Source: Planctomycetota bacterium (GTDB taxonomy: Bacteria; Planctomycetota; B15-G4). From it: a stretch of DNA of 64,000 bases. Below the pieces are notes generated by a model, which saw only the letters and a list, made by a program, of their open reading frames with translations, had not been told where the DNA came from and made no database searches. Shown here piece after piece: positions 1 to 43,158 of this stretch (position 1 is its first letter; the number at the start of each line of letters is the position of its first letter). The position numbers and the translations under genes were made by a program. The DNA lies in the NCBI GenBank assembly GCA_038212275.1, contig JBBQUR010000016.1, forward strand, positions 1 to 64,000. The letters are read 5' to 3'.

Positions 1-19
1 GGGGATGGGGAGATTGCGG

Positions 20-203
20 TGCTCGGCGCGTGATGCTCAGGTGCGGAATGCTCAGCACTCAATGATCAGAACGGAATCCTCAAGCGGGCAATGTTCGGCG
101 TGCACGGCGCAGCGCGGAACGCCTCGCGCGTGACGCTCAGCTCGAGATGGTGAGCGCGTGCCTCTCAACGCGTAGTTCCCAGCGAGTGCTGCTCAGCGCG
201 GGA
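20..203. repeat. Degenerate 14-bp tandem repeat, consensus TGCTCAGCGCGTGA, ~13 copies, non-coding
   Basis: Units start at 20, 34, 49, 63, 77, 92, 106, 120, 134, 148, 162, 176 and 190 (e.g. tgctcggcgcgtga, cgctcagctcgaga, tgctcagcgcggga). All six frames contain stops. Confidence 0.75.
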
Positions 204-29651: not shown

Positions 29652-30827
29652 ATGGCAAGTTCCGTGAAGCGTCGTTCCACGATCCAGGTCCCCGTCGGCA
29701 AGCTGGTCCTCGGCAGCGAGCACAAGGTGCGCGTGCAGTCGATGACCAACACCGATTCGCGTGATGCCGATGCCACCGTGGCGCAGATCAAGGCGCTGGA
29801 GGAGGCCGGCTGCGAGCTGGTGCGCGTGACGATCCCCGACATCGAGAGCGCGCGCAACATCCCGCACTTCCTGCGGAACATGGACGTGCCCTTCATCGCG
29901 GACATCCACTTCAACCACGCGATGGCGCTGGCCGCCATCGAGGCCGGCGCGCACAAGGTGCGCATCAACCCGGGCAACATCGGCAGCGAGAAGAAGGTCG
30001 CGGAGGTCATGCAGGCCGCGAAGGTGAAGCAGACCACGATGCGCATCGGCGTGAACAGCGGCAGTCTCGAGAAGGACCTGCTGGACAAGCACGGCTGGCC
30101 GTCGCCCGAGGCGCTGGCGGAGAGCGCCGTGCGGCACGTGGCCTTCGCGCGCAAGTACGGCGTCGAGCGCCTCGTGGTCTCGATCAAGTCCACCGACGTG
30201 CCCAGCGCCGTGGCCGCCAACCGCCTCTTCGCGGCGCAGAGCGACGTGCCTCTGCACGTGGGCATGACCGAGGCGGGCGATCTGCAGTATGGCAGCGTCA
30301 AGTCCGCCGCCGGCATCGGTGCGCTGCTGCTCGACGGCATCGGCGACACGATCCGCGTCTCGCTCACCGCGGACCCGGTGCTGGAAATCCCGGTCGCCTA
30401 CGACATCCTCAAGTGCTGCGGCATCCGCGTGATTTCGCCGGAAATCATCGCGTGCCCGACCTGCGGGCGCATCGACATCGACCTCGAGAAGATCGTGGCC
30501 GAGGTCAAGCAGCGCCTGAAGAAGCACACGCTGCCCGTGAAGATCTCCGTGCTCGGCTGCGCCGTGAACGGGCCGGGCGAGGCGCGCGAGGCGGACATCG
30601 GCATCGCGGGCGGCGCCGGCGAGGGCCTGCTCTTCCGCAAGGGCAAGGTGGTGCGCAAGGTGCGCGAGGACCAGATCGTGGACGCGCTCATCGAGGAACT
30701 GGACGCGATGGAAGCCGAGCGCGCGGCGGCGGGCATCGTCAACGACGACATCGATCCGGAGAAGCGCGGCCCGGCAGCGCGCACCCCGGCCGGCGCCGTG
30801 CCGGTCGTGGGCCAGTCCACGCCGTGA
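29652..30827 (+). CDS. ispG: (E)-4-hydroxy-3-methylbut-2-enyl-diphosphate synthase
   Basis: VQSMTNT, ADIHF, RINPGNIG, GDTIRVSLT, ACPTCGR and GCAVNGPGE. Confidence 0.98.
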   Translation: MASSVKRRSTIQVPVGKLVLGSEHKVRVQSMTNTDSRDADATVAQIKALEEAGCELVRVTIPDIESARNIPHFLRNMDVPFIADIHFNHAMALAAIEAGAHKVRINPGNIGSEKKVAEVMQAAKVKQTTMRIGVNSGSLEKDLLDKHGWPSPEALAESAVRHVAFARKYGVERLVVSIKSTDVPSAVAANRLFAAQSDVPLHVGMTEAGDLQYGSVKSAAGIGALLLDGIGDTIRVSLTADPVLEIPVAYDILKCCGIRVISPEIIACPTCGRIDIDLEKIVAEVKQRLKKHTLPVKISVLGCAVNGPGEAREADIGIAGGAGEGLLFRKGKVVRKVREDQIVDALIEELDAMEAERAAAGIVNDDIDPEKRGPAARTPAGAVPVVGQSTP

Positions 30828-32812
30828 CACACGGCATGCGGGCCTTCGCAGGGCGCGGCCGTGTCGTCCTCTGCGTGCTTCTCGCGCTGGCGCTTGGTGG
30901 GCTGCAGGCGCCGCTTGCAGCGCAGGGCAAGGTGAACCCGGTGCACATCACCGCGCGCGGTCCCGCCGAAGCGGTGCCCGCGGGCGATGCCTTCGTGGTC
31001 ACGCTCGACGTGACCATCGACTTCGGCTGGCACGTCTACGCTCACGACAACGAACCCCCGTACATTCCCGTCTCGGTGGAGGGCGTCAGCGCGGACGGCA
31101 TCGTCTTCGATTCCGCCGAGTACCCGACCGCGTCGCGCACGGTCGCGGTTCCCGAACTGGACGAGAGCTACAAGGCGCTCGAGGGCCATTTCGAGGTTCG
31201 CGCGCTCTTCCACACGGAGGGGACGCGGGCGCCGGGCGAGGCTCATGCGAAGGGCACGTTTTCCTGGCAGGCCTGCACGGAAAGCAGTTGCCTCAACCCG
31301 GCGAGCGAGAGCTTTGATGTCGCAGTGACGGTGAGCGCTCCCGCGCCGGGCGGGCCCTCCGTGAAGGAGGCCGGGACTGCGGGGAGTGCGGATCCGCCAG
31401 CCGGAGGCCGAGCACTCGCGGCGGGGAGCGGTGCGCCGCCGGCCACGACGCTCGAAGGCAATTTCGAGAGCGCGCTCGCGGCGGGGGATGTCTTCGGCGT
31501 GATCTGGCTGTCGATCGTTCTCGCGCTCGTCTCGCTGCTCACGCCGTGCGTGTTCCCGATGATCCCGATCACGATCTCGTTCTTCACCAAGCGCGGCGGC
31601 GAGGAAAGCCGCGGGCAGGGCACGCGCTACGCGTTGGCCTACGGGCTCGGCATCGTCGGCACTTACACGGGCTTCGGTGTCGGCATGGCGCTGCTGCTCG
31701 GTGCCAGTTCGCTGCAGAGTTTCGCGGCGGACCCGATCACGAACCTCGCCATCGGGGCGCTTTTCGTGTTCTTCGGCCTGTCGCTCATGGGCTTCTACGA
31801 TCTGAAGCCGCCCGCCTTCCTCGCGCGCCGCGCCGAGTCGGGCATGGCCGGGGGAGCACGCGGCTACCTTCCCGTCATCGCGATGGGCTTCGTGTTCACG
31901 GTGACGGCCTTCACCTGCACCGCGCCGATCATCGGCTCGCTGCTCGCGCAGATCACGTCGAGCGGCTCGCCGGGGTTGATCGTCGTCGGGATGCTCTCCT
32001 ACTCGGCGGCCTTTGCGGCTCCCTTCGTGCTGCTCGCGATGTTTCCGGGCATGGTCGGCCGGCTGCCGGGGGCGGGCGGCTGGATGATCACGCTCAAGGC
32101 GACGCTCGGCTTCATCGAGCTCATCGCGGCGCTGAAGTTCTTCAGCAATGCGGACCTGAGCTGGGACCTGCAGCTCCTGTCGCGGCCCGTGATGCTCATG
32201 CTCGGCGTGCTGCTGTCCGCGGCCCTGGCGCTGTACCTCTTCGGCACCTACCGGCTGCCGCACGACGTGCCCGGGCGGCGACGCGTGCTCTCGCTCCGGA
32301 CGCTGGCCGCGCTGCTCGCCGTGCTTCTCTGCCTCTATCTCGCGCGGGGACTGCCCGGCCACGAGCTGGACACCTGGACCGAGGCCTACCTGCCCGACCA
32401 CGACTATGCGGCGGGTGTCGGCGGCGCGAGCCGGCCCTCGACCGGAGCCGGCGTGAACTGGGTGGAGGACTACCAAGAGGCCCGGAAACTCGCCGCTGCG
32501 GAGAATCGGAATCTCTTCATCGACTTCACCGGCATCACCTGCGTCAACTGCCGCAAGGTGCAGAAGGCCATCTTCGACAAGTCGGATTTCGCACCGCTCA
32601 TGGACCACGTCGTCCCGACAAAGCTGTACACGGACCGGAAGGGACCGCACGCGGCCGGCGACGCGGCCAACCAGCAGCTCATGGAAACCTTGGGTTCCGT
32701 GACGCTGCCGCTCTACATCCTGATGTCCCCCGACGGAAAGGTGCTGAAGCACCGGGGCTATACGGCGGACATCTCGGTGACCGACTTCGCCACTTTCGTG
32801 GAGGCCCCATGA
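30824..32812 (+). CDS. dsbD: DsbD-like thiol:disulfide interchange protein
   Basis: N-domain GWHVY and QACTESSC, TM domain LTPCVFP and FTCTAP, thioredoxin DFTG..CVNC. Start is GTG 30824 or ATG 30836. Confidence 0.92.
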   Translation: MTHGMRAFAGRGRVVLCVLLALALGGLQAPLAAQGKVNPVHITARGPAEAVPAGDAFVVTLDVTIDFGWHVYAHDNEPPYIPVSVEGVSADGIVFDSAEYPTASRTVAVPELDESYKALEGHFEVRALFHTEGTRAPGEAHAKGTFSWQACTESSCLNPASESFDVAVTVSAPAPGGPSVKEAGTAGSADPPAGGRALAAGSGAPPATTLEGNFESALAAGDVFGVIWLSIVLALVSLLTPCVFPMIPITISFFTKRGGEESRGQGTRYALAYGLGIVGTYTGFGVGMALLLGASSLQSFAADPITNLAIGALFVFFGLSLMGFYDLKPPAFLARRAESGMAGGARGYLPVIAMGFVFTVTAFTCTAPIIGSLLAQITSSGSPGLIVVGMLSYSAAFAAPFVLLAMFPGMVGRLPGAGGWMITLKATLGFIELIAALKFFSNADLSWDLQLLSRPVMLMLGVLLSAALALYLFGTYRLPHDVPGRRRVLSLRTLAALLAVLLCLYLARGLPGHELDTWTEAYLPDHDYAAGVGGASRPSTGAGVNWVEDYQEARKLAAAENRNLFIDFTGITCVNCRKVQKAIFDKSDFAPLMDHVVPTKLYTDRKGPHAAGDAANQQLMETLGSVTLPLYILMSPDGKVLKHRGYTADISVTDFATFVEAP

Positions 32813-33462
32813 GCAGCCCATCCCAGCCCGCCATGCCTGGCCGTGCGGCCCATGAAGGGCCCGAATCGACCTCGGCGCCGGTCAACGGCGGCCCGCTGCT
32901 GCGCGTGGTGGACACACCCCGCATCGAGGCTGCCGTGCGCGAGATCCTGCAGGCCGTGGGGGAGGACCCGGACCGCGACGGCCTGCTGGGCACGCCCAAT
33001 CGGGTGGCCCGGATGTACGCCGAGATCCTGTCGGGGAACGAGGTGGACCCGGCGCGGCATCTGGCCGTGACCTTCGCCGAAGACCACCACGAAATGGTGC
33101 TGGTGAAGGACATTCCCTTCGAGTCGCTGTGCGAGCACCACATGATGCCGTTCCACGGCCGCGCGCATGTGGCCTACGTGCCGCAGGGCCGAATCGTCGG
33201 GCTGTCCAAGATTGCCCGCGTGGTGGAGGAGTACGCCCGGCGGCTCCAGGTGCAGGAGCGCCTGACCTCGCAGATCGCGGACCTCATCATGAACACGCTG
33301 GAGGCGCACGGTGTGGGCGTGGTGCTTGAGGCCACCCACACCTGCATGTCGATGCGGGGCATCCGCAAGCCGGGCGCCGTGATGGTGACCTCTGCCCTCC
33401 GCGGCACGTTCCGCAGCTGCCCCGAGACCCGCTCCGAGTTCATGAACATCATCAAGAGCTGA
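32809..33462 (+). CDS. folE: GTP cyclohydrolase I
   Basis: GEDPDRDGL..TP.RV, SLCEHH, GLSK, RLQVQERLT and HTCMSMRG; ATGA overlap. Confidence 0.97.
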   Translation: MSSPSQPAMPGRAAHEGPESTSAPVNGGPLLRVVDTPRIEAAVREILQAVGEDPDRDGLLGTPNRVARMYAEILSGNEVDPARHLAVTFAEDHHEMVLVKDIPFESLCEHHMMPFHGRAHVAYVPQGRIVGLSKIARVVEEYARRLQVQERLTSQIADLIMNTLEAHGVGVVLEATHTCMSMRGIRKPGAVMVTSALRGTFRSCPETRSEFMNIIKS

Positions 33463-33591
33463 GCGACCGCCCGGGCCGGCGCGGGGCTGCCGCCGAGAGC
33501 CCGGAAGAATAATGCCTGCCCCGATGAGTTGCTGGAGACTCCAGCCGAGCTCAAGGTGATGACGCGCCGCGAGGTTGCTCGACGCACTTTC

Positions 33592-33654
33592 GCGAGCCTC
33601 GTTTCAGGCTCTGCGAGCATCGCTTCAGACTCTGCGAGCCTCGTTTCAGACACA
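33592..33654. repeat. 21-bp tandem repeat x3 (GCGAGCCTCGTTTCAGACTCT)
   Basis: Units at 33592, 33613 and 33634. Confidence 0.8.
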
Positions 33655-33703
33655 GGGCGGCACCGAAAGGCGCTGACTCTCGTGCATCCCGGCGCCTGGA
33701 GTG

Positions 33704-33739
33704 CCGGCGCCCCGACCGGCGCCCCGACCGGCGCCCCGA
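33704..33739. repeat. 12-bp tandem repeat x3 (CCGGCGCCCCGA)
   Basis: Units at 33704, 33716 and 33728. Confidence 0.8.
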
Positions 33740-33997
33740 TCGGGACCGGGGCCAGCTTCCCGGGACTGGCCGGTTCACCGCGACCAGAAAAACAGTTTGG
33801 GGCGCAACCTAGCCCGATGTCGGAAACCCGCCTATACTCCGCACGCGAAGCCAATTCGCTCCCCAACTGTCCTTGGCAGCTCGACTGGTCCCCGAAACCA
33901 GTCAGGCGACCCCGAACCATGCCAATGGCAGCGCGAAATGGCTTTCCGACGTGTGCGCCCGCTCTCCCTGCGTTCTCTCCCCTCCCGGAGTCCGCTG

Positions 33998-34549
33998 ATG
34001 AAATTCCCTCGTGCGGCACTGGTAGTGGCCGGACTTGCGCTGGTCACGGTTCCGCTTTTCGCAGCGGTGAAAGCGATGACGCTTTCCGAGCTCATGGAGC
34101 TCACCCAGGACACGGCCCTTGTGCACATCGTCGACAAGACGACCTTCACTTCGGACCTTCCGTTCGAGGGCGCCGTCTTCACGCGCCTCACCGTCAAGGG
34201 TGAGTCGCTGCGCACGGGGGACGAGGTCTCCACCCAGATCATCTTCCTGGGAAGCCACGATCCCGCAGACCACTTCGCGAGCAGCGAAATGCCGACGCTG
34301 CAGGACACGCGTGTCGGCGGCGACGCGATCCTGTTCCTGTACAGGGACGCCACGATGCCCGGCACGCCGTTCCGCGTGTCGAGCCACGCCGACGTGTATC
34401 GCGTGGAGCGCGCCTTCGGCACCGACGTCGTGATCGGCAAGGGCGAGGGCGCGGCGTTCACGGAAAACGTGCCGCTCGTCGTGGCGCGTGACCGCGTCCG
34501 CCAGACGGACGTCGCGCAGCGCGCCGCCAAGTCGCAGGCCGGAAAGTAG
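33998..34549 (+). CDS. Secreted 183-aa hypothetical protein, matrixin partner copy 1
   Basis: Signal peptide MKFPRAALVVAGLALVTVPLFA and GGAG RBS; clear paralog at 36559. Confidence 0.88.
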   Translation: MKFPRAALVVAGLALVTVPLFAAVKAMTLSELMELTQDTALVHIVDKTTFTSDLPFEGAVFTRLTVKGESLRTGDEVSTQIIFLGSHDPADHFASSEMPTLQDTRVGGDAILFLYRDATMPGTPFRVSSHADVYRVERAFGTDVVIGKGEGAAFTENVPLVVARDRVRQTDVAQRAAKSQAGK

Positions 34550-34556
34550 GGCTGCC

Positions 34557-36437
34557 ATGAAACTCGACACCCGCAATCTGCTGGCGATCGGTGGCCTTGC
34601 CGCGACGGCGCTCGTGGTGGCTGCCTTCTCGCTCCCGACGAGCACGGCCGCGTTCGCCACGCTCGGCGGCAGCCTCGGCACCGGTCAGCGCGACTTCCGC
34701 GTGTTCAACAACTTCTCCGACTCGACCGCGAACAACAACGTCACGCCGCACGTGAACTTCCCGGGACAGACCGGCGCCGTGATGGCCATCTGGAAGGCCG
34801 AGTCCGAGTGGGCCAGCGAGCCCGTCGGCGGCAACGGACTCGGAGACGGCATCTCCGGCAACCCGATCCTGGGCAGCGGCAACGCGAACTTCGACACGAT
34901 CTTCCAGGGAACGGCGACGTCGGCGGGCAACAGCAACGCCAACATCCACTCGGAGCTGACGGGCAGCGACGGCGGAGTGCTCGCCTTCACGCTGTCGCCG
35001 ATCAGCGATGGCTGGACCATCAAGTACTACTCGACGTGGACCTGGCAGGACGGCCCCGGCTCCGTGAGCTCGGGCATCGACATCCAGGGCGTGGCCTGCC
35101 ACGAGATCGGCCACTCGCTCGGGCTTGACCACTCCAATGCGTCGGGCACGCCGACGATGACGGCTTTCATCAGCGGCACAGGCACGAGCCAGCGTTCGAT
35201 CGAGTCCGACGACATCGCCGGACTCCAGTCGATCTATGGTGTGAAGTCGGCCGGCAAGCCGCACATCTCGTCGATTTCCGGCACCAAGCAGATCGGCCAG
35301 CCGCTCACGATCACCGGCACCAACTTCGCCGCGACCGGCGGCGAGGTCTGGTTCACCAAGTTGAACAGCGACGGCGCTCCCGCAAAAGTGACGAACGTCT
35401 CGTCCACCGGCGGCGGCACGTCGATCACCGTCACGATTCCGAACGGCGTGCAGGACGGAGAGGTGATGGTGAAGAACAACACCGACACCGACTCCAGCCT
35501 CTCGAATGCCTTCCCGATCGACACGAACGCCGCGAGCGGCAATCCGCCCAACGTCTTCAGCATCAGCCCGGGCTTCGGCTTCGCGGGCGGTTTCTCCACA
35601 GTGGCGATCACGGGTGTCGGTTTCACGGGCACCACGAGCGTGAAGTTCAACGACGCGGATGCGCTGGATTTCACCGTGAACAGCGACACGCTGATCACCG
35701 CGACGGCTCCGGGCGGACCGCTGTTCGGCCTTGCCGACGTCACGGTCACCGATGGTGACGGCGCCGCCACGCTGGCTTCGGCCTACTTCTTTACCTTCGA
35801 CCCGCTGGCGTCGATCTCCTCGGTCACGCCGAACTTCGGTCCGACCGCGGGCGGCACGCAGGTCTCGATCACCGGCACCTCCGTGATCGGCGTCACGAGC
35901 GTCACCTTCGGCGGCGTGCCGGGCACGCAGCTCGACGTGGTCAGCTCCACCGAGCTCACCGTGTTCACGCCGGCTGGCGTCGCAGGTCCCGTGGACGTGG
36001 TCGCGATCGCATCCAACCCTGCGACGATCGTCGCCGGCTTCTCGTACATGGATGAAGGCCTGTTCACCGTCTTCGGGACGGGCGTGCCGGGCCTCTCGGC
36101 GACGGCGCCGCAGCTCAACGGTGCGGGCGACCTCACGCCGGGCAGCGGCACGGGCTTCATGCTGTTGACCAGTGGCGCGGCTCCTCTCGCGCCGGCCGCC
36201 CTGTTCGTCAGCCTCGTGCAGGGCAACGTGCCCTTCAAGGGCGGCACGATCTACACCTTCCCGATCCTGCTGGACATCAGCCTGATCACCAGCGCCTCCG
36301 GCACCATCAGCTTGCCCGCCCAGATTCCGGCGGGCACCCCGACGGCAACGAATTTCTTCCTGCAATGCTGGGTGCAGGATGCCGGCGCCGTGCACGGCAT
36401 CGCATCCACGAACGGCCTTCAGGTGACCACGCCTTGA
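34557..36437 (+). CDS. Matrixin (M10-like metzincin) with IPT/TIG repeats and shared CTD, copy 1
   Basis: HEIGHSLGLDH, Met-turn PTM, DDIAGLQSIYG and three IPT-like repeats (ITGTNF, ITGVGF, ITGTSV); signal peptide. Confidence 0.92.
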   Translation: MKLDTRNLLAIGGLAATALVVAAFSLPTSTAAFATLGGSLGTGQRDFRVFNNFSDSTANNNVTPHVNFPGQTGAVMAIWKAESEWASEPVGGNGLGDGISGNPILGSGNANFDTIFQGTATSAGNSNANIHSELTGSDGGVLAFTLSPISDGWTIKYYSTWTWQDGPGSVSSGIDIQGVACHEIGHSLGLDHSNASGTPTMTAFISGTGTSQRSIESDDIAGLQSIYGVKSAGKPHISSISGTKQIGQPLTITGTNFAATGGEVWFTKLNSDGAPAKVTNVSSTGGGTSITVTIPNGVQDGEVMVKNNTDTDSSLSNAFPIDTNAASGNPPNVFSISPGFGFAGGFSTVAITGVGFTGTTSVKFNDADALDFTVNSDTLITATAPGGPLFGLADVTVTDGDGAATLASAYFFTFDPLASISSVTPNFGPTAGGTQVSITGTSVIGVTSVTFGGVPGTQLDVVSSTELTVFTPAGVAGPVDVVAIASNPATIVAGFSYMDEGLFTVFGTGVPGLSATAPQLNGAGDLTPGSGTGFMLLTSGAAPLAPAALFVSLVQGNVPFKGGTIYTFPILLDISLITSASGTISLPAQIPAGTPTATNFFLQCWVQDAGAVHGIASTNGLQVTTP

Positions 36438-36558
36438 TCGGCCGACTGCGGAATTGCCGAACGGTTGGCGCGTTCGACAAGACCGTGCTCTCCCTCTCCC
36501 CCTCAGTTCCGCCAATCCCGACTTCTCTTCCTCAATTTCGTATCCACGGAGATCATCC

Positions 36559-37110
36559 ATGAAAATTCTCAAGGCCGCGGCCGTGCTGCTTGGCGTAGCG
36601 CTCGTCGCGATTCCCGCAGGTGCCGCCATCAAGGCGATGACCCTGGCGGAGGCGATGGAGATCAACTCCGACGTCCTGCACGGTCGCATCATGTCCAAGA
36701 CGACGGTGAAGACCGACAGGCCGCTCGAGGGCATGGTCTACACGCACATCACCGTGGAGGGCGAGTCGCTCACCACGGGCGAGAAGGTCACCAAGGAGCT
36801 CGTGTTCCTCGGCAGCCACGACACGAAGGACAACTACGGCACGAGCGAGATGCCCACGCAGCAGGACACGCGCGTCGGCGGCGATGCCCTCATCATGTAC
36901 TCGCATGACGAGTCCGGCGCCACGCCGGTGGATCGCGTCTCCGATTTCTCGGCGGTCTATCGCGTCGAGCTCGCCTTCGGCGAGCCCGTCGTCATCGGCA
37001 AGGGCGAGGGCTTCGCCTTCCCCGAGAACGTGAAGCTCGCCGAGGCCCGCACGCGGGTCCTCAAGGCTCACGCTGACATCATGGCTGCCAAGACCAAGGC
37101 CGGAAAGTAA
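36559..37110 (+). CDS. Secreted 183-aa hypothetical protein, matrixin partner copy 2
   Basis: Signal peptide and GGAG RBS. Shares KAMTL, FLGSHD, SEMPT.QDTRVGGDA and VVIGKGEG with copy 1. Confidence 0.88.
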   Translation: MKILKAAAVLLGVALVAIPAGAAIKAMTLAEAMEINSDVLHGRIMSKTTVKTDRPLEGMVYTHITVEGESLTTGEKVTKELVFLGSHDTKDNYGTSEMPTQQDTRVGGDALIMYSHDESGATPVDRVSDFSAVYRVELAFGEPVVIGKGEGFAFPENVKLAEARTRVLKAHADIMAAKTKAGK

Positions 37111-37118
37111 AGGAACAC

Positions 37119-38993
37119 ATGAAGACCATCACACAGACTCTTCTCGCAGCTGGCAGCCTCGCTGCAGTGGCCGCAGTGCTTGGCGCGCTGTCGCTCCCCA
37201 CGAGTACGGCGGCTTTCACCGTCATCGGCGGCAGCCTCGGCACCGGCCAGCGCGACTTCCGCGTCTGGAACAATTTCACGGACACGCAGGCGAACAACAA
37301 CACGTCGCCTCACGTGAATTTCCCGGGCCAGACCGGCGCCGTCATGGCGATCTGGAAGGGCGCGGCCGAGTGGGCCAGCCAGCCTGTTGGCGGCACCGGC
37401 ACGGGTGACACGGGCGGCAGCAATCCCGTGATCGGAAGCGGCGGCGCCAACCTGGATCTCAACTTCCAGGGGCTCGCCTCGAGCGCCGGATCCACCAACC
37501 AGAACATCCACTCCGAGCTGTCAGGCAGCAGCGGTGGCGTCCTCGCGTTCACCGAGACGCCCATCAGCGACGGCTGGAGAATCCTCTACTACTCGTCGTG
37601 GACCTGGCAGGACGGTCCCGGCAGCGTGGGCTCGGGCATCGACCTGCAGGGCGTGGCCTGCCACGAGATCGGCCACTCCACGGGACTCGGCCACTCGAAC
37701 ACCGGGGGCGCGACGATGTTCGCATCCATCAGCGGCACGGGTGTCGGTCAGCGCTCGATCGAGGCGGACGACATCGCGGGCGTGCAGTCGATCTACGGTG
37801 TGAAGTCGGCCTCGAAGCCGACGATCACCTCGATTGCCGGCGACAAGAACATCGGCGCCAACCTGATCATCAACGGCACCAACTTCTCCGCGACCGGCGG
37901 CGAGGTCTGGTTCACCAGGACGGCCGCCGACGGCACTCCGGTGAAGGTCACGGGAGTGGCTTCCACGGGCGGCGGCACGCAGATCACGGTCACCATCCCG
38001 TCGGGGGTGATGGACGGCGAGGTCATGGTGAAGACGAGCGGGAGCGGCAACACCAGCCTCTCGAATGCCTTCCCGATCGATCTCGGCGCGCCGGCCGGCG
38101 ATCCGCCGAACGTGAGCTCGATCGTCCCGAACGTGGGTTCGATGGGCGGCTTCACGTCTGTCCAGATCCTCGGGACGGGCTTCACGGGCACGACGGCCGT
38201 GAAGTTCGACGGCGTGGATGCGATCTCGTTCACGGTAGACAGCAACGTCCAGATCTCGGCGGTCACGCCGCCTGGCACGCTGTTCGCCGCGGCGGACGTG
38301 CTCGTCGTCGATGGGGAGGGCAGCTCAACCCTTCCCACGGCGTTCATCTACACGTTCAACCCGCAGATTTCCGTCTCGACGGTGCTTCCGAACAGCGGTG
38401 CGCTCACGGGCGGCACGGAAGTCACGATCAGCGGGACCTCGGTGGTCGGCGCCAACACCGTCACGTTTGACGGCGTGCCCGGCATCAACGTGGAGGTCAT
38501 CAGTGCGACGAGCCTGACGGTCACGACCCCGGCGGGCCTCGCGGGTCCGGCGGACGTGGTCGTCAGCGGGAGCAGCATGTCGACGATCGTCGGCGGCTTC
38601 ACCTACGTCAACTTCGGAACCTTCACGGACGTCGGTCCGGGTTTCGGAAGCATCATCGGAGCACCCAGCATGACCGGCGCAGGCGATCTGACGCCCGGCA
38701 GCGGGACGGGCTTCACGCTGACCACGACGAACACCTTCCCGTTCTCGTTGGCGGCGACGTTCGTGAGCCTCAACCTGAGTGCCGTGCCCTTCAAGGGCGG
38801 CACGTTCTATCCGTTGCCGATCCTGCTCCAGATCGACCTCGTCACGGATTCGTCCGGCACGATCGTCCTGCCGGGGCAGATCCCGGTGGGCGTGCCGTCG
38901 GGCGCGAACGTGTACATGCAGACCCTGGTTTCGGACTTCCTCGCGCCCAAGGGCCTGAGTGGAAGCAATGCGCTGAGGCTCACGACGCCGTGA
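37119..38993 (+). CDS. Matrixin with IPT/TIG repeats and shared CTD, copy 2
   Basis: HEIGHSTGLGH, ATM Met-turn and DDIAGVQSIYG; colinear paralog of 34557..36437; AAGGA RBS. Confidence 0.92.
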   Translation: MKTITQTLLAAGSLAAVAAVLGALSLPTSTAAFTVIGGSLGTGQRDFRVWNNFTDTQANNNTSPHVNFPGQTGAVMAIWKGAAEWASQPVGGTGTGDTGGSNPVIGSGGANLDLNFQGLASSAGSTNQNIHSELSGSSGGVLAFTETPISDGWRILYYSSWTWQDGPGSVGSGIDLQGVACHEIGHSTGLGHSNTGGATMFASISGTGVGQRSIEADDIAGVQSIYGVKSASKPTITSIAGDKNIGANLIINGTNFSATGGEVWFTRTAADGTPVKVTGVASTGGGTQITVTIPSGVMDGEVMVKTSGSGNTSLSNAFPIDLGAPAGDPPNVSSIVPNVGSMGGFTSVQILGTGFTGTTAVKFDGVDAISFTVDSNVQISAVTPPGTLFAAADVLVVDGEGSSTLPTAFIYTFNPQISVSTVLPNSGALTGGTEVTISGTSVVGANTVTFDGVPGINVEVISATSLTVTTPAGLAGPADVVVSGSSMSTIVGGFTYVNFGTFTDVGPGFGSIIGAPSMTGAGDLTPGSGTGFTLTTTNTFPFSLAATFVSLNLSAVPFKGGTFYPLPILLQIDLVTDSSGTIVLPGQIPVGVPSGANVYMQTLVSDFLAPKGLSGSNALRLTTP

Positions 38994-39047
38994 TGGCGTC
39001 GTGATCCGGGAGTCCCGCGCGCCCCGGGCGCGTCGGACTGCCAGTGG

Positions 39048-39085
39048 GCGAGGCCCGTCCTTCCTGAGGGAAGGGCGGGCCTCGC
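39048..39085 (+). terminator. Strong 17-bp hairpin after matrixin 2 (putative terminator, no U-tract)
   Basis: gcgaggcccgtccttcc-tgag-ggaagggcgggcctcgc, with one G:U pair. Confidence 0.55.
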
Positions 39086-39223
39086 TCCATGTCGGGGCTC
39101 GTCGCGGCACATGCACGGGGCTACGCACGGGACACGCACGTCGTGCGCCGGACATCGGCGCACGCAGCGCCCGGTGAAGTGCTTGCGCGCCCCTTGCTGC
39201 ACGCACGCAGCAGGCCTGCCGCC

Positions 39224-39251
39224 TTGCACGGGAAGTGCCAATCCCTATAGT
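39224..39251 (+). promoter_or_regulatory. Putative sigma70 promoter of the nuo operon
   Basis: TTGCAC-N16-TATAGT, 34 nt upstream of the nuoA GTG. Confidence 0.55.
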
Positions 39252-39285
39252 GCCGGCTGCGTCCGGACCCCGCGCGGAGAACTCC

Positions 39286-39681
39286 GTGTTCCTGAGCTAC
39301 CACGCCGTTCTCGTGTTCCTGATCACGGGCATGGCCATGGTGTGTACGCCGATGATTCTCGGCGTGCTCTTCCGCCCGCGGAATCCCTACCCGGCGAAGA
39401 CCATGGCCTACGAATGCGCCGAGGATCCGGTGGGCGACGCCCAGATCCGCTTCGACATGCGCTTCTACTCGGCCGCGCTGATTTTCATCATTTTTGACGT
39501 GGAAATCGCCTTCATGTTCCCTTGGGCGCTTGTCTTCCAAGGCTTCCATGACCGCTGGCTGGCACTCGCGGAAGGGGTGGCGTTCATCGCGATCCTCTTC
39601 CTCGGCCTGGTCTACGTCTGGGTCAAGGGCGACGTGGACTGGGTCAAGACCTTCCGCCACCGTCGACGGGTGCAGGGCTGA
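39286..39681 (+). CDS. nuoA: Complex I subunit A
   Basis: K...YECAEDP, RFY..ALIFIIFDVE.AFMFPW; GGAGA RBS before GTG. Confidence 0.95.
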   Translation: MFLSYHAVLVFLITGMAMVCTPMILGVLFRPRNPYPAKTMAYECAEDPVGDAQIRFDMRFYSAALIFIIFDVEIAFMFPWALVFQGFHDRWLALAEGVAFIAILFLGLVYVWVKGDVDWVKTFRHRRRVQG

Positions 39682-39684
39682 GCC

Positions 39685-40209
39685 ATGGGCATTCTGAACA
39701 ACGCGCTTCCTGACATCGCACCGGTCCGCGCCGTGGATGCGGCCGTCGGCTGGGGACGCGGCTCGTCGCTGTGGCCGATGACCTTCGGCATCGCGTGCTG
39801 CGCCATCGAGATGATGGCCGTGTACGCGGCCACCTTCGACCTCGATCGCTTCGGAGCCGGCGTGCCGCGCGCAACACCGCGCCAGAGCGACCTCATCATC
39901 GTGCCGGGCACCGTGAACGCCAAGATGGCCGTGCGCGTGCGCCGCCTCTGGGACCAGATGGCCGAGCCGCGCTACGTGATCGCGATGGGAGCGTGCGTGT
40001 GCGGCGGCGGACCTTATGTGAAGTGGGGCTACAACACGGTGAAGGGCGTCCACAAGATCATTCCCGTCGACATCTTCGTGCCCGGCTGCCCGCCGCGCCC
40101 CGAAGCACTGATGGATGGCATCCTCAAACTGCGCGAGAACGTCACGCGCGAGGCGGTCTTCGCGCGCCGTGAAGCCACGGCGCGGATCCTGGACGCCCGC
40201 GGCGGCTGA
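39685..40209 (+). CDS. nuoB: Complex I subunit B
   Basis: [27 protein letters not shown] and [16 protein letters not shown]. Confidence 0.97.
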
Positions 40210-40216
40210 TCGCGCA

Positions 40217-40921
40217 ATGAACGAACAACAGCTGCACGCCAAACTGCTGGCCTCCGGCCTGCCCGGGATAGGGGAGCTGGACACGTCCGCGAGGGATCCG
40301 TTCGTCCGCGTGGACGCCGGCTCGATCGTCGCCGTGTTGACCTTCCTGCGCGACGACCACGATTGCCGCATGGAGATGCTGCACAACCTGACCGCCGTGG
40401 AGCGGCCCGACGCGATCGAGCTCGTCTACCACGTGTGTTCGCTGGCGCGTCACCACGCGCTCACCGTGAAACTGAGCTGCCCGCGCCCGGATGGTGGCAA
40501 TCACGACACGTGGATCCCCGAGGTGCCGTCCGTGGCCGGCGTGTACAGCGCCGCCAACTGGCACGAGCGCGAGCAATGGGATCTCCTGGGCGTGCGCTTC
40601 GCGGGCCATCCCGACCACAGGCGCATCCTGCTGCCCGAGGAATGGATCGGCCACCCGCTCCGCAAGGACTACGTCTACCCGACGTGGCACGACGGCATCC
40701 CGCTCGAGCTCGATGCGATCCCGCTGTACGAGCCGGGTGGCGGGCAGGCTGCGGCCGAGGCTGCGGCGGCGTCGGCTGCCGGTGCGGCGGGTGCCGCCGC
40801 CAAAGCTCCGCGCAAGGCGGGTGAGCCGCTGTTCCAGCCGCCGGCGCCGCTGAGCACGCGTCCGCTCGCGCCGGGCGGCAAGACGACGGACACGCCCGCG
40901 TCCGAGCTGGGGTCGCACTGA
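40217..40921 (+). CDS. nuoC: Complex I subunit C with Ala/Pro-rich C-tail
   Basis: ANWHEREQWDLLG..F.GHPD.RRILLP and GHPLRKDY. Confidence 0.94.
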   Translation: MNEQQLHAKLLASGLPGIGELDTSARDPFVRVDAGSIVAVLTFLRDDHDCRMEMLHNLTAVERPDAIELVYHVCSLARHHALTVKLSCPRPDGGNHDTWIPEVPSVAGVYSAANWHEREQWDLLGVRFAGHPDHRRILLPEEWIGHPLRKDYVYPTWHDGIPLELDAIPLYEPGGGQAAAEAAAASAAGAAGAAAKAPRKAGEPLFQPPAPLSTRPLAPGGKTTDTPASELGSH

Positions 40922-42090
40922 TGGAAGCGCTCGAACTCTACGCGGTGGATGACCGCGCCGACGTTTACACCGAGGAGCTCAAGCTCAACCTCGGCCCGCA
41001 GCATCCGTCCACGCACGGCGTGCTGCGCGTGGAGTTGCGCCTGGACGGCGAGATCATCACCGCCGCGCGCTGCGACATCGGCTACCTGCACCGCTGCGCC
41101 GAGAAGATCGGCGAAAACGTCAGCTACCTGCAGTTCACGCCGTACACCGACCGCATGGACTACCTCTCGTCCATGAACAACAACCTGGCGTGGAGCCTCA
41201 CGGTCGAGAAGCTGCTTGGCGTGGAGGCGCCGCCGCGCGCGCAGTGGTTGCGCGTGATCATGGCCGAGCTCAACCGCATCGCGAGCCACCTCATCGCCTT
41301 CGGCACCTACGGCATCGACATGGGCGCGGCGACGCCCTTCTTCTACGCGTTCCGCGAGCGCGAAAGCATCATGGCGCTGCTCGAGCGGCCCTCCGGCGCG
41401 CGCATGCTCTACAACTACATCCGCCCGGGCGGCGTGGCGCACGACATCGACGAACGCTGGCTGCCCGACGTCCTCGCCTTCTGCGACGAGTTCGAGAAGC
41501 GCTGGGCCGAATACAACACGCTGCTCACGACGAACAAGATCTTCATCGAGCGCACGAAGAACATCGGCGTGATCCCGAGGCAGATGGCGCTCGATTACGG
41601 CCTCACCGGCCCGGTGCTGCGAGGCTCCGGCGTGAAGTGGGACCTGCGACGCGACGTCCCCTACCTGAAGCCCTACGACGAGATCGAGTTCGACATCCCG
41701 GTCGGTGAGGGCACGCACGGCACGCTGGGCGACTGCTGGGACCGCTACTGGGTGCGCATGCTCGAGATGATGGAGTCCATCCGCATCATCCGGCAGGCGG
41801 CCGTGCGCGTGCCGACGGGCGACTTCGTCGAGAAGGCGATGCTCAAGATGTACAAGTCGCCGCTCAAGCCGGCGGCAGGCGAGGCCTACATGCGCTGCGA
41901 GAACCCGCGCGGCGAGCTGGGCTTCTACGTCGTGTCGGCCGGCGGCGCCTCGCCGATCCGCTGCCGCGCGCGCGGCCCGAGCTTCTGCAACCTGTCGGTG
42001 CTCGACGCGCTGCTGCCCGGCTGCATGATCGCCGACGGCGTGGCGATCATCGGCTCGCTGGACATCGTGCTCGGCGAGGTGGACCGCTAG
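40921..42090 (+). CDS. nuoD: Complex I subunit D
   Basis: NLGPQHPSTHGVLR, IGYLHR..EK, DRMDY, ENPRGELG and DIVLGEVDR. Confidence 0.97.
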   Translation: MEALELYAVDDRADVYTEELKLNLGPQHPSTHGVLRVELRLDGEIITAARCDIGYLHRCAEKIGENVSYLQFTPYTDRMDYLSSMNNNLAWSLTVEKLLGVEAPPRAQWLRVIMAELNRIASHLIAFGTYGIDMGAATPFFYAFRERESIMALLERPSGARMLYNYIRPGGVAHDIDERWLPDVLAFCDEFEKRWAEYNTLLTTNKIFIERTKNIGVIPRQMALDYGLTGPVLRGSGVKWDLRRDVPYLKPYDEIEFDIPVGEGTHGTLGDCWDRYWVRMLEMMESIRIIRQAAVRVPTGDFVEKAMLKMYKSPLKPAAGEAYMRCENPRGELGFYVVSAGGASPIRCRARGPSFCNLSVLDALLPGCMIADGVAIIGSLDIVLGEVDR

Positions 42091-42093
42091 GCG

Positions 42094-43158
42094 ATGGAGA
42101 CGCTCATCCGCTTCTTCAGCGACCTCTTCCACCTCAGCCCCGACGGCGTCCTGCCGCTCACGCTGGCGTACTCGGTGTGCATCGGCAGCCTGCTGGGCTT
42201 CATCACGGTCTACGCGATGTTCGCGATCTGGATGGAGCGCAAGGTGGCCGCGCACATCCAGATCCGCTACGGACCGATGGAAGTGGGCGGCTGGCACGGC
42301 TGGGCGCAGTCCATCGCGGACGCGGTCAAGCTGCTGTTCAAGGAAGACCTGATTCCGGACGGCGCCAACAAATTCATGTTCTGGATCGCGCCGGCGGTCG
42401 TGTTCTGCGGCGTGTTCTCCGGCTTCATCGCGATTCCGTTCGCGCTCGGCGTCCAGATCGTCGACATCCACCTCGGCCTCTTCTTCATCGTGTGCATCGC
42501 CTCGGTGGAGGTGGTGGGCGTGATCATGGCCGGCTGGGCGAGCAACAGTAAGTACTCGCTCTTCGGGGCCGTGCGCGAGGCGGCGCAGGTCGTGTCCTAC
42601 GAGGTGCCGGCGGCGGTCGCGCTGCTCGTGCCGATCCTCATCGTGGGCAGCTTCCGCCTCGGCGACTTCAACGCGTGGCAGGAAGAGCACGGCTGGCTCG
42701 TGTTCCACAACCCGTTCGTCATCGTCGCGGCGCTGATCTACTTCATCGCGTCGCTGGCGGGCTGCAAGCGTGCGCCCTTCGACCTGCCCGAGGCGGAGTC
42801 GGAACTCGTGTCGGGCTTCCACACCGAGTATTCGGGCATGCGCTTCTCCTTCTTCTTCCTGGAGGAATACGCGTCCATGTTCGTGGCCGCGGCGCTCGTC
42901 GCGACGCTGTTCCTCGGCGGATGGACGCTGCCCTTCGTGAACGTGTCGGCGTGGCCGGTCCCGTTCGGCATCGTGATCCTGCTCGCGAAGATCTTCGCCG
43001 TGATCTTCCTGCAGATGCTGCTGCGCTGGACCCTGCCGCGCCTGCGCATCGACCAGGTGATGGCCATGGGCTACAAGTACCTGCTGCCGTGGGGCATGCT
43101 GTGTGTCGTCGGCACCGCGCTCTTCGAGACCATGGGGTGGAGGTGGCTGCCTCTCTGA
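42094..43158 (+). CDS. nuoH: Complex I subunit H
   Basis: ERKV.A.IQ.R.GP, ADAVKLLFKED, SYE, PFDLPEAESELVSGFHTEYSG and PRLRIDQ. Confidence 0.97.
   Translation: METLIRFFSDLFHLSPDGVLPLTLAYSVCIGSLLGFITVYAMFAIWMERKVAAHIQIRYGPMEVGGWHGWAQSIADAVKLLFKEDLIPDGANKFMFWIAPAVVFCGVFSGFIAIPFALGVQIVDIHLGLFFIVCIASVEVVGVIMAGWASNSKYSLFGAVREAAQVVSYEVPAAVALLVPILIVGSFRLGDFNAWQEEHGWLVFHNPFVIVAALIYFIASLAGCKRAPFDLPEAESELVSGFHTEYSGMRFSFFFLEEYASMFVAAALVATLFLGGWTLPFVNVSAWPVPFGIVILLAKIFAVIFLQMLLRWTLPRLRIDQVMAMGYKYLLPWGMLCVVGTALFETMGWRWLPL

Follow-up and report, generated by a model that had tools for sequence, protein, structure and literature searches.

Animal matrix metalloproteinases (MMPs) are typically zymogens with a cysteine switch of the sequence PRCGxPD, and TIMPs inhibit metzincins tightly in a 1:1 complex, in which the zinc is chelated through the N-terminal amine of the inhibitor. 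In bacteria, the inhibitor AprI/Inh, an eight-stranded barrel, inserts an N-terminal segment into the active site, and the matrixin karilysin has a short propeptide. TIMPs are regarded as a family of the Metazoa that is associated with the extracellular matrix, with Cys1-x-Cys3 after signal cleavage and conserved disulfides as family features (PMC9409782). In Tannerella forsythia, potempin A, an OB-fold inhibitor that acts via its barrel loops, is encoded immediately upstream of karilysin (PMC9890683), and in Listeria monocytogenes the metzincin Mtz is encoded beside Tim, a protein resembling TIMP by predicted fold, the pair being conserved in many bacteria (PMC8235301). The latter paper also mentions the N-terminal insertion of AprI/Inh, and its authors state that they had come across no earlier account of TIMP-like structures in bacteria. 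Here, we describe a tandemly duplicated two-gene unit in a window of 64,000 nucleotides (nt) of Planctomycetota DNA (assembly GCA_038212275.1, contig JBBQUR010000016.1, positions 1 to 64,000), each unit encoding a small secreted protein, designated partner, followed by a secreted matrixin. The module is a real, conserved two-gene unit of the kind in which a bacterial protease is accompanied by an inhibitor-like protein from its own operon, and we discuss whether the partner may be the cognate inhibitor of its protease.

Organization of the tandem units

The genome (4.65 Mb, 91% complete; the window is its contig C16) stems from an uncultured sediment planctomycete, whose named relatives are Planctomycetota metagenome-assembled genomes (MAGs) throughout. 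Positions 33998-38993 are occupied by four genes of the plus strand, which are listed below together with their main features.

33998-34549, + strand: partner 1 (P0001), 183 amino acids (aa); signal peptide 1-22; NTR/TIMP-like OB barrel and long C-terminal helix predicted; cysteine-free
34557-36437, + strand: protease 1 (P0002), 626 aa; residues 1-32, signal peptide; F33 to approximately residue 233, matrixin catalytic domain; then three IPT/TIG stretches and a C-terminal domain of about 120 aa without family match
35100-35132, + strand: HEIGHSLGLDH, the zinc-binding motif of protease 1 (residues 182-192), with the invariant T200-M201, a probable Met-turn, downstream
36438-36558, + strand: spacer of 121 nt between unit 1 and unit 2
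36559-37110, + strand: partner 2 (P0003), 183 aa; 53% identity to partner 1
37119-38993, + strand: protease 2 (P0004), 624 aa; zinc-binding motif HEIGHSTGLGH at 37662-37694

The units are colinear and lie 2,561 nt apart. The stop codon of the partner gene is separated from the start codon of the protease gene by 7 nt in unit 1 (TAG GGCTGCC ATG) and by 8 nt in unit 2 (TAA AGGAACAC ATG). The two partners can be aligned without gaps and are identical at 97 of 183 positions (E 2e-64), sharing the motifs KAMTL, FLGSHD, SEMPT.QDTRVGGDA and VVIGKGEG, and the two proteases are identical at 381 of 602 positions (63%), with 75% identity in the catalytic region. The preliminary description of this DNA, made from the letters alone, had reported two colinear units about 2.56 kb apart, each with a 183-aa partner 7-8 nt before a matrixin-IPT protease, and had quoted these four motifs; coordinates and motifs agree with it. 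A partner-protease pattern occurring in two units is far beyond chance, and the pair recurs at every related locus inspected.

The proteases

Both proteases match Peptidase_M10 (PF00413) with 50.6 bits (cut-off 24), residues 138-228 corresponding to profile positions 70-159 of 159, and each carries three IPT/TIG stretches. In an alignment of 36 protease sequences, H182, E183, H186, G189, H192, T200 and M201 are invariant, and the closest solved relatives by sequence are the MMP-13 catalytic domain (8.3e-10), MT3-MMP, matrilysin and karilysin (7.3e-7). By profile score, the HExxHxxGxxH motif and a probable Met-turn at T200-M201, the window proteases classify as matrixins (M10A/PF00413).

In both enzymes the predicted cleavage site joins the end of the signal peptide (...PTSTAA) directly to F-x-x-x-GG. 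Across the 36 sequences the residue at -1 is always alanine or glycine, that at -3 is T, S or A in 34, P27 is invariant, and the residue at +1 is aromatic without exception (F in 20, Y in 13 and W in 3), which is the position where activated MMPs start. Thirteen residues after F33 lies the invariant sequence QRDFRVFNNF, whose DFRVFNNF stretch we take to resemble strand I of the MMPs by comparison with MMP-13. The PRCG motif of the cysteine switch is absent from the first six aligned protease sequences, both window proteases included, and the cysteines of the window enzymes are C181, just before HEIGH, in both and C604 in protease 1. On these sequence grounds, the proteases are without a prodomain, there being no room for one between signal peptide and catalytic domain, and because of this the enzyme would be mature once its signal peptide is removed. 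The start at F-x-x-x-GG without prodomain or cysteine switch, which the preliminary description had pointed out, is borne out for both window proteases, and the extended set has F, Y or W at +1.

The last approximately 120 aa of the proteases (36069-36434 and 38622-38990; residues ~505-626) form a conserved domain with the pattern ...PFKGG...Q.W..D...SN.L..., for which there was no Pfam match. In the language-model Atlas, many Planctomycetota clusters of 117-139 aa resemble this domain, and a CHRD-domain cluster does so with a score of 0.82; the domain might serve for sorting or anchoring in this lineage specifically. The genome also contains a third matrixin paralogue, of about 450 aa, on the minus strand of another contig (G000:C9:178721-179365, locus L041). 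It has no partner gene, fewer IPT/TIG domains, the same C-terminal domain, the same prodomain-less start and 62% identity in the catalytic part, and a GDSL/SGNH-like gene is located upstream of it.

Linkage of partner and protease genes in the Planctomycetota

At eight related MAG loci, all 11 partner copies are followed by a protease, tandem pairs being present at three of the loci, and one locus carries an extra protease without a partner. For a sample of the phylum, 401 Planctomycetota genomes were searched, and a partner was counted as linked when a protease was found on the same strand no more than 400 nt downstream. The partner profile matched 37 of these genomes, among them all ten of the window's own family, and the catalytic domain matched 69 genomes at E <= 1e-10 and 81 places in 39 genomes at E < 1e-30 (designated close proteases). 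A close protease lies downstream of 45 of the 50 partner matches, a 46th partner (G094:C207) is followed, with an overlap of 1 nt, by an open reading frame with a divergent HExxHxxGxxH motif, and the remaining four matches are located at contig ends, so that 46 of 46 assessable partners precede a metzincin. Viewed from the other side, 37 of the 39 genomes with a close protease also carry a partner, and the 81 close proteases comprise 46 paired copies (one via the wider hidden Markov model (HMM) only), four that could not be assessed and 31 that are partner-less. Obligate pairing, which the preliminary description had suggested, therefore applies to the partner, which was never seen without a protease, and does not apply to the protease.

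In 30 of 32 distinct pairs the gap between the two genes measures -4 to +20 nt, and in most cases GGAG or AGGA lies within or next to the stop codon of the partner gene, a layout that points to a co-transcribed and translationally coupled pair. When the labels paired and orphan were placed on a tree of 69 catalytic domains, from which the partial orphan match G071:C44 was left out, 14 changes were required, at least six of them forced by supported branches; shuffled labels needed 21.7 changes on average, and none of 500 shufflings gave a number as low as 14. The orphan protease of the window genome falls into an all-orphan clade of five (support 98). Partner and protease trees have their big clades in common, which mostly reflects species kinship, and in a mirror-tree comparison support for how the duplicates pair was low among close family members (33-46).

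These data bear on the possibility that the partner serves as an escort in folding or export, i.e. a prodomain acting in trans that would be needed transiently and not as a stable inhibitor. The protease lacks a prodomain, which in other proteases is often an intramolecular chaperone, the partner gene precedes the protease gene and is closely coupled to it, which favours co-translational supply, and the linkage is strict from the partner's side. However, 31 of 81 equally prodomain-less paralogues are partner-less, two genomes lack any partner, fused partner-protease forms were not found in the family, and we know of no foldase with an NTR fold. On balance, we consider an escort function unlikely.

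The partner family

For P0001 and P0003, no Pfam-A family was found at E <= 1 and there was no match in NCBIfam, PHROGs or PADLOC. The family is tight: 131 proteins were retrieved at E <= 0.001, the 120 listed ones having 177-200 aa, and such names as are given read solely 'hypothetical protein', from Planctomycetota. A search of the partner profile against 1.84 billion representative sequences gave 106 clusters at E <= 0.001, nearly all of 170-200 aa, and a distant member was supported by hhalign with 97% probability. A metagenomic protein of 354 aa (P0152) is the sole clearly longer member; its partner domain spans residues 214-351, and the N-terminal ~200 aa have no Pfam match. Fusions of partner and protease were absent from the longer proteins in a word search, and the profile search gave no long fusion either, its longest matches having 248-354 aa and no apparent protease domain.

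By the -3/-1 rule, signal cleavage of the partner is placed after A22, and the predicted mature protein begins with A23-V-K-A-M-T-L in partner 1. The -1 residue is alanine in 34 of 36 close members and in 22 of 27 sequences of a wide alignment, and V, A, L, I or G is found at -3. The mature start of the family reads X-[I/V]-[K/E/Q]-x-[L/M]-x-L, where X is A, S or G among close relatives and Q, C, K or D among distant ones. The residues after the cleavage site are among the best conserved of the protein (in the 36 close members, K25 in 34, A26 in all, L29 in 35 and E31 in all), and such conservation at the mature start is unusual for a secreted protein. In the wide family, the invariant residues are limited to G85, P99 (of the S-E-M-P motif), G107 and G147. 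The histidine of the GSHD sequence, which the preliminary description had considered as a possible ligand of the protease zinc, was rejected as a family-wide ligand, as distant members conserve neither H87 nor D88, and G85 is the one invariant residue of this stretch in them. The C-terminal tail of the partner is rich in lysine. Cysteines are absent from P0001 and P0003; among the 36 close homologues, five have a cysteine after residue 23 and none has one at +1. A divergent subgroup (P0137, P0160 and P0163; loci L022 and L031) has a cysteine at the predicted +1 position (A-C-I-E-A-L), which could be either part of a lipobox, the protein then being a lipoprotein like the potempins, or an N-terminal cysteine as in TIMPs, with opposite predictions for N-terminal chelation.

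The predicted fold of the partner

An AF2 model of partner 1 was built from 36 sequences (pLDDT 86.4, pTM 0.79), and all fold comparisons refer to this predicted model and not to a solved structure. In the model, a short helix spans residues 29-35, the beta barrel carries a further helix (98-103) between its strands 3 and 4, and residues 160-181 form a long helix at the C-terminus. The loop 86-97 is of low confidence, the mean pLDDT over residues 91-100 being 67. In an exhaustive VIA structure search over 48,161 chains, which was followed by a closer second comparison, the N-terminal agrin domain NtA was the top match (1jb3, Z 10.1-10.2, root-mean-square deviation 3.0, 112 residues aligned), the NTR domain of PCOLCE reached Z 9.6 and the C345C domain of complement C3 reached Z 8.4. 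The N-TIMP-1, N-TIMP-3 and TIMP-2 matches lie at Z 8.2-9.2 with 112-126 residues aligned: N-TIMP-3 in its complex with TACE (3cki_B) gave Z 9.2 over 116 residues (model 23..176 versus chain 2..121), N-TIMP-1 gave Z 8.8 (3ma2_C), and the chains 2j0t_D (N-TIMP-1) and 1br9 gave Z 8.2, TIMP-1 having scored 7.1 in the first search. The first 15 rows of the second comparison are all NtA, NTR, TIMP or C345C domains with 110-126 residues aligned, and plain OB folds (RecO, PriB) begin at Z 7.9 with 81-93 residues aligned. Residue 23 of the model, the predicted mature N-terminus, is the first to be aligned and pairs with residue 2 of N-TIMP-1 (2j0t_D) and of N-TIMP-3. The nearest named clusters in the Atlas are a bacterial cluster with PF00965 in 19% of its members (0.92), agrin NtA (0.87) and nematode NTR/TIMP (0.85).

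The partner is thus predicted to have a TIMP/NTR-type OB fold, with NTR-clan modules at the top of the 48,161-chain search, in keeping with the TIMP/OB-like strand pattern that had been proposed from the sequence; a fold match by itself shows no function. Within the model, the conserved N-terminus and the S-E-M-P loop would match, by topology, the N-terminal wedge and the sC-sD ridge of TIMPs.

The same matches can be read differently, in that the partner would be a non-inhibitory binding module of the NTR type, either an adaptor holding the protease at, or directing it to, a polymer of the cell surface or a substrate, or an enhancer resembling PCPE. The top structural matches are agrin NtA and the PCOLCE NTR domain and not TIMPs, and the NTR domain of PCPE-1 enhances and does not inhibit (PMC2871463). 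The lysine-rich tail of the partner, together with the IPT/TIG stretches and the unmatched C-terminal domain of the protease, suggests surface association. Against an adaptor stand the conserved free N-terminus and the S-E-M-P loop at TIMP-equivalent positions, the need for latency control that a prodomain-less protease would leave unmet, and the difference in Z between NtA (10.2) and N-TIMP (8.8-9.2), which at about 1 is treated as a near-tie. We regard such a module as rather unlikely.

Proposed function of the partner

The reading that we favour, at about even confidence, is that the partner is a cysteine-free, TIMP-like cognate inhibitor of its matrixin. It is based on the matrixin that always follows downstream, the coupling of the two genes, the co-export of their products, the predicted fold, which is that of TIMP, the single well-known protein that inhibits matrixins, the free and conserved N-terminus, and an enzyme without built-in latency. 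The unit would be a two-gene operon, the first gene of which would provide a protein of the NTR/TIMP-type fold that is exported via Sec, has no cysteine and is about 160 aa long, and the second, translationally coupled gene would provide a matrixin that becomes mature upon the cut by signal peptidase. The partner would bind the cognate catalytic domain 1:1, either in the periplasm or on the cell surface, and block the active-site cleft, and the enzyme would stay latent as long as it is not released and the partner remains in place. The likeliest contacts would be made by the N-terminal sequence A23-[I/V]-K-A-[M/L]-T-L and by the conserved loop ending in S-E-M-P.

Several observations weigh against an inhibitory role. 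At 31 of the 81 close proteases, no partner was found within ~1.5 kb upstream, even with the wide HMM at E <= 1, and these partner-less enzymes are equally prodomain-less; moreover, the genomes G071 (95% complete) and G384 (89%) carry a protease and no detectable partner. The enzyme can therefore exist without a partner. (In these two genomes, at G071:C12 (L045) and G384:C44 (L047), the protease gene is divergently oriented beside an HtpG/Hsp90-like gene.) The structural support has weak points as well. The model is least certain in the N-terminal segment (pLDDT below 50 at residues 20-23, mean 68 over 21-30), its best Z of about 10 is modestly above the Z of 7-8 that unmatched models usually reach, and its structurally closest relatives, agrin NtA and the PCOLCE NTR domain, are non-inhibitory NTR modules. 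In a Foldseek comparison with the PDB, a check that the preliminary description had proposed, nothing was found at E <= 0.001, and the weak matches were to OB folds and TIMP-2 (PriB as the best at 1.6e-3, TIMP-2 at 4.4e-3). Pfam models for TIMP, NTR and NtA gave no match in the 36 close members (E <= 10) or in 20 divergent members (E <= 1). The partner stands outside the TIMP family, because it has no Cys1-x-Cys3, no disulfides and no match to PF00965. If the +1 cysteine of the divergent subgroup is a lipobox, the N-terminus would be acylated there and zinc chelation would be impossible. Finally, the NTR domain of PCPE-1, even when it starts at its N-terminal cysteine, did not inhibit MMP-2, BMP-1 or ADAMTS enzymes (PMC2871463).

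PF00965 found nothing at E <= 10 in the six-frame translation of the window's own genome and had no match above cut-off in the 401 phylum genomes, where two spurious fragments appeared at E about 0.005, and the partner-family profile had no significant match among PDB sequences (best E 1.8). A much farther-reaching version of the inhibitor reading holds that the partner, though free of disulfides, is truly homologous to the TIMP/NTR module of animals and inhibits in the same manner, via its free N-terminus at the catalytic zinc, and that the MMP-TIMP couple arose, or long existed, as a bacterial operon; to this we assign a low probability.

The partner could also be a substrate or payload of the protease, whose cleavage frees or activates a TIMP-like fragment that acts elsewhere. 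The model for this is Listeria, where Tim is cut by the metzincin of its operon and the phenotypes require both proteins (PMC8235301), and in the window the low-confidence loop 86-97 could be a cleavage site in the predicted structure. However, the window partners are not lipoproteins, having no lipobox and, besides being cysteine-free, an AxA-type signal peptidase I site, the gene order is opposite to that of the Listeria pair, and the partners lack an N-terminal extension of ~50 aa that could be cleaved off. Searches with PHROGs and PADLOC gave no match, and nothing at the locus is phage-like. A payload function thus appears highly improbable, and cognate inhibition of the matrixin by its partner remains the reading we prefer.

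Genomic context and duplication

The tandem units are flanked upstream by ispG, a DsbD-like gene and folE (29652-33462) and downstream by the nuoA-B-C-D-H operon (39235-43158). Of the eight related MAG loci, six (L003, L004, L005, L007, L008 and L010) have the same flanks (ispG-dsbD-folE and nuoA-B-D), and at this syntenic site the cassette is present once in L003, L007 and L008 and twice in the window, L004, L005 and L010. From shared flanks with one or two cassettes we conclude that the duplication of the unit is old and vertically inherited and is not a mobile insertion. Duplication as a unit had already been noted in the preliminary description, and the varying copy number at one site agrees with it.

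A scan of positions 33300-39400 revealed neither a sigma-70-like promoter nor a plus-strand terminator, and Rfam gave no match at gathering score over 30000-42000. The non-coding stretch of 535 nt between folE and partner 1 contains tandem repeats at 33592-33651 (21 nt, 2.9 copies) and 33704-33743 (12 nt, 3.3 copies). These repeats, at which there is no Rfam match or consensus promoter, may be regulatory sites.

Significance and comparison with known systems

The literature search, outside which most subscription journals lay, gave no description of this planctomycete family or of a bacterial cysteine-free TIMP-fold partner of a matrixin. The partners represent a cysteine-free family of predicted TIMP fold that is genetically locked to prodomain-less matrixins in several planctomycete families, and the occurrence of tandem cognate pairs and partner-less paralogues in one genome offers a natural test of specificity. 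If the inhibitor reading is true, the units would provide a second route to matrixin latency, with an inhibitor in trans instead of a cysteine-switch prodomain, as well as a minimal disulfide-free scaffold for the study and engineering of MMP inhibition, and the question whether the MMP-TIMP pairing is older than animals would become directly testable.

The domains that come structurally closest to the partner, agrin NtA, PCOLCE NTR and C345C, are eukaryotic, disulfide-bonded parts of larger proteins that bind laminin (in the case of agrin NtA), heparin or complement partners, and unlike the partner none of them is genetically tied to a protease. AprI/Inh (MEROPS I38) resembles the proposed partner in that it inhibits a secreted bacterial metzincin, is located in the periplasm and is encoded at the protease locus; its eight-stranded barrel is not among the listed structural matches to the partner model. 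The Listeria Mtz-Tim pair differs from the window in that the protease gene comes first and Tim is a lipoprotein cleaved by Mtz, and further in its phage-type CI/Cro switch, its cell-wall phenotype and the different type of metzincin (PMC8235301).

With the animal TIMPs (MEROPS I35), the partner shares, in its predicted model, an OB barrel with an N-terminal and a C-terminal helix, and the targets of TIMPs are matrixins, as are the window proteases, with their HExxHxxGxxH motif, probable Met-turn and aromatic mature N-terminus. In contrast to TIMPs, the partner has no Cys1-x-Cys3, no disulfides, no C-terminal domain and no PF00965 match, and forms an operon with its protease. The potempins are 98-132-aa outer-membrane lipoproteins with a five-stranded OB or eight-stranded barrel and a bilobal mechanism, whereas the mature window partner has about 160 aa, an NTR-like predicted fold with terminal helices and no lipobox, and inhibition has been measured for potempins (PMC9890683) while for the planctomycete partner it is inferred. 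No potempin chain occurs among the 50 structural matches listed, which does not exclude a similarity. In gene arrangement, the potempin/KLIKK pairs are like the window: the gene of a small secreted OB-fold protein directly precedes that of a bacterial matrixin, with which it is co-transcribed, and one genome contains several pairs of this kind.

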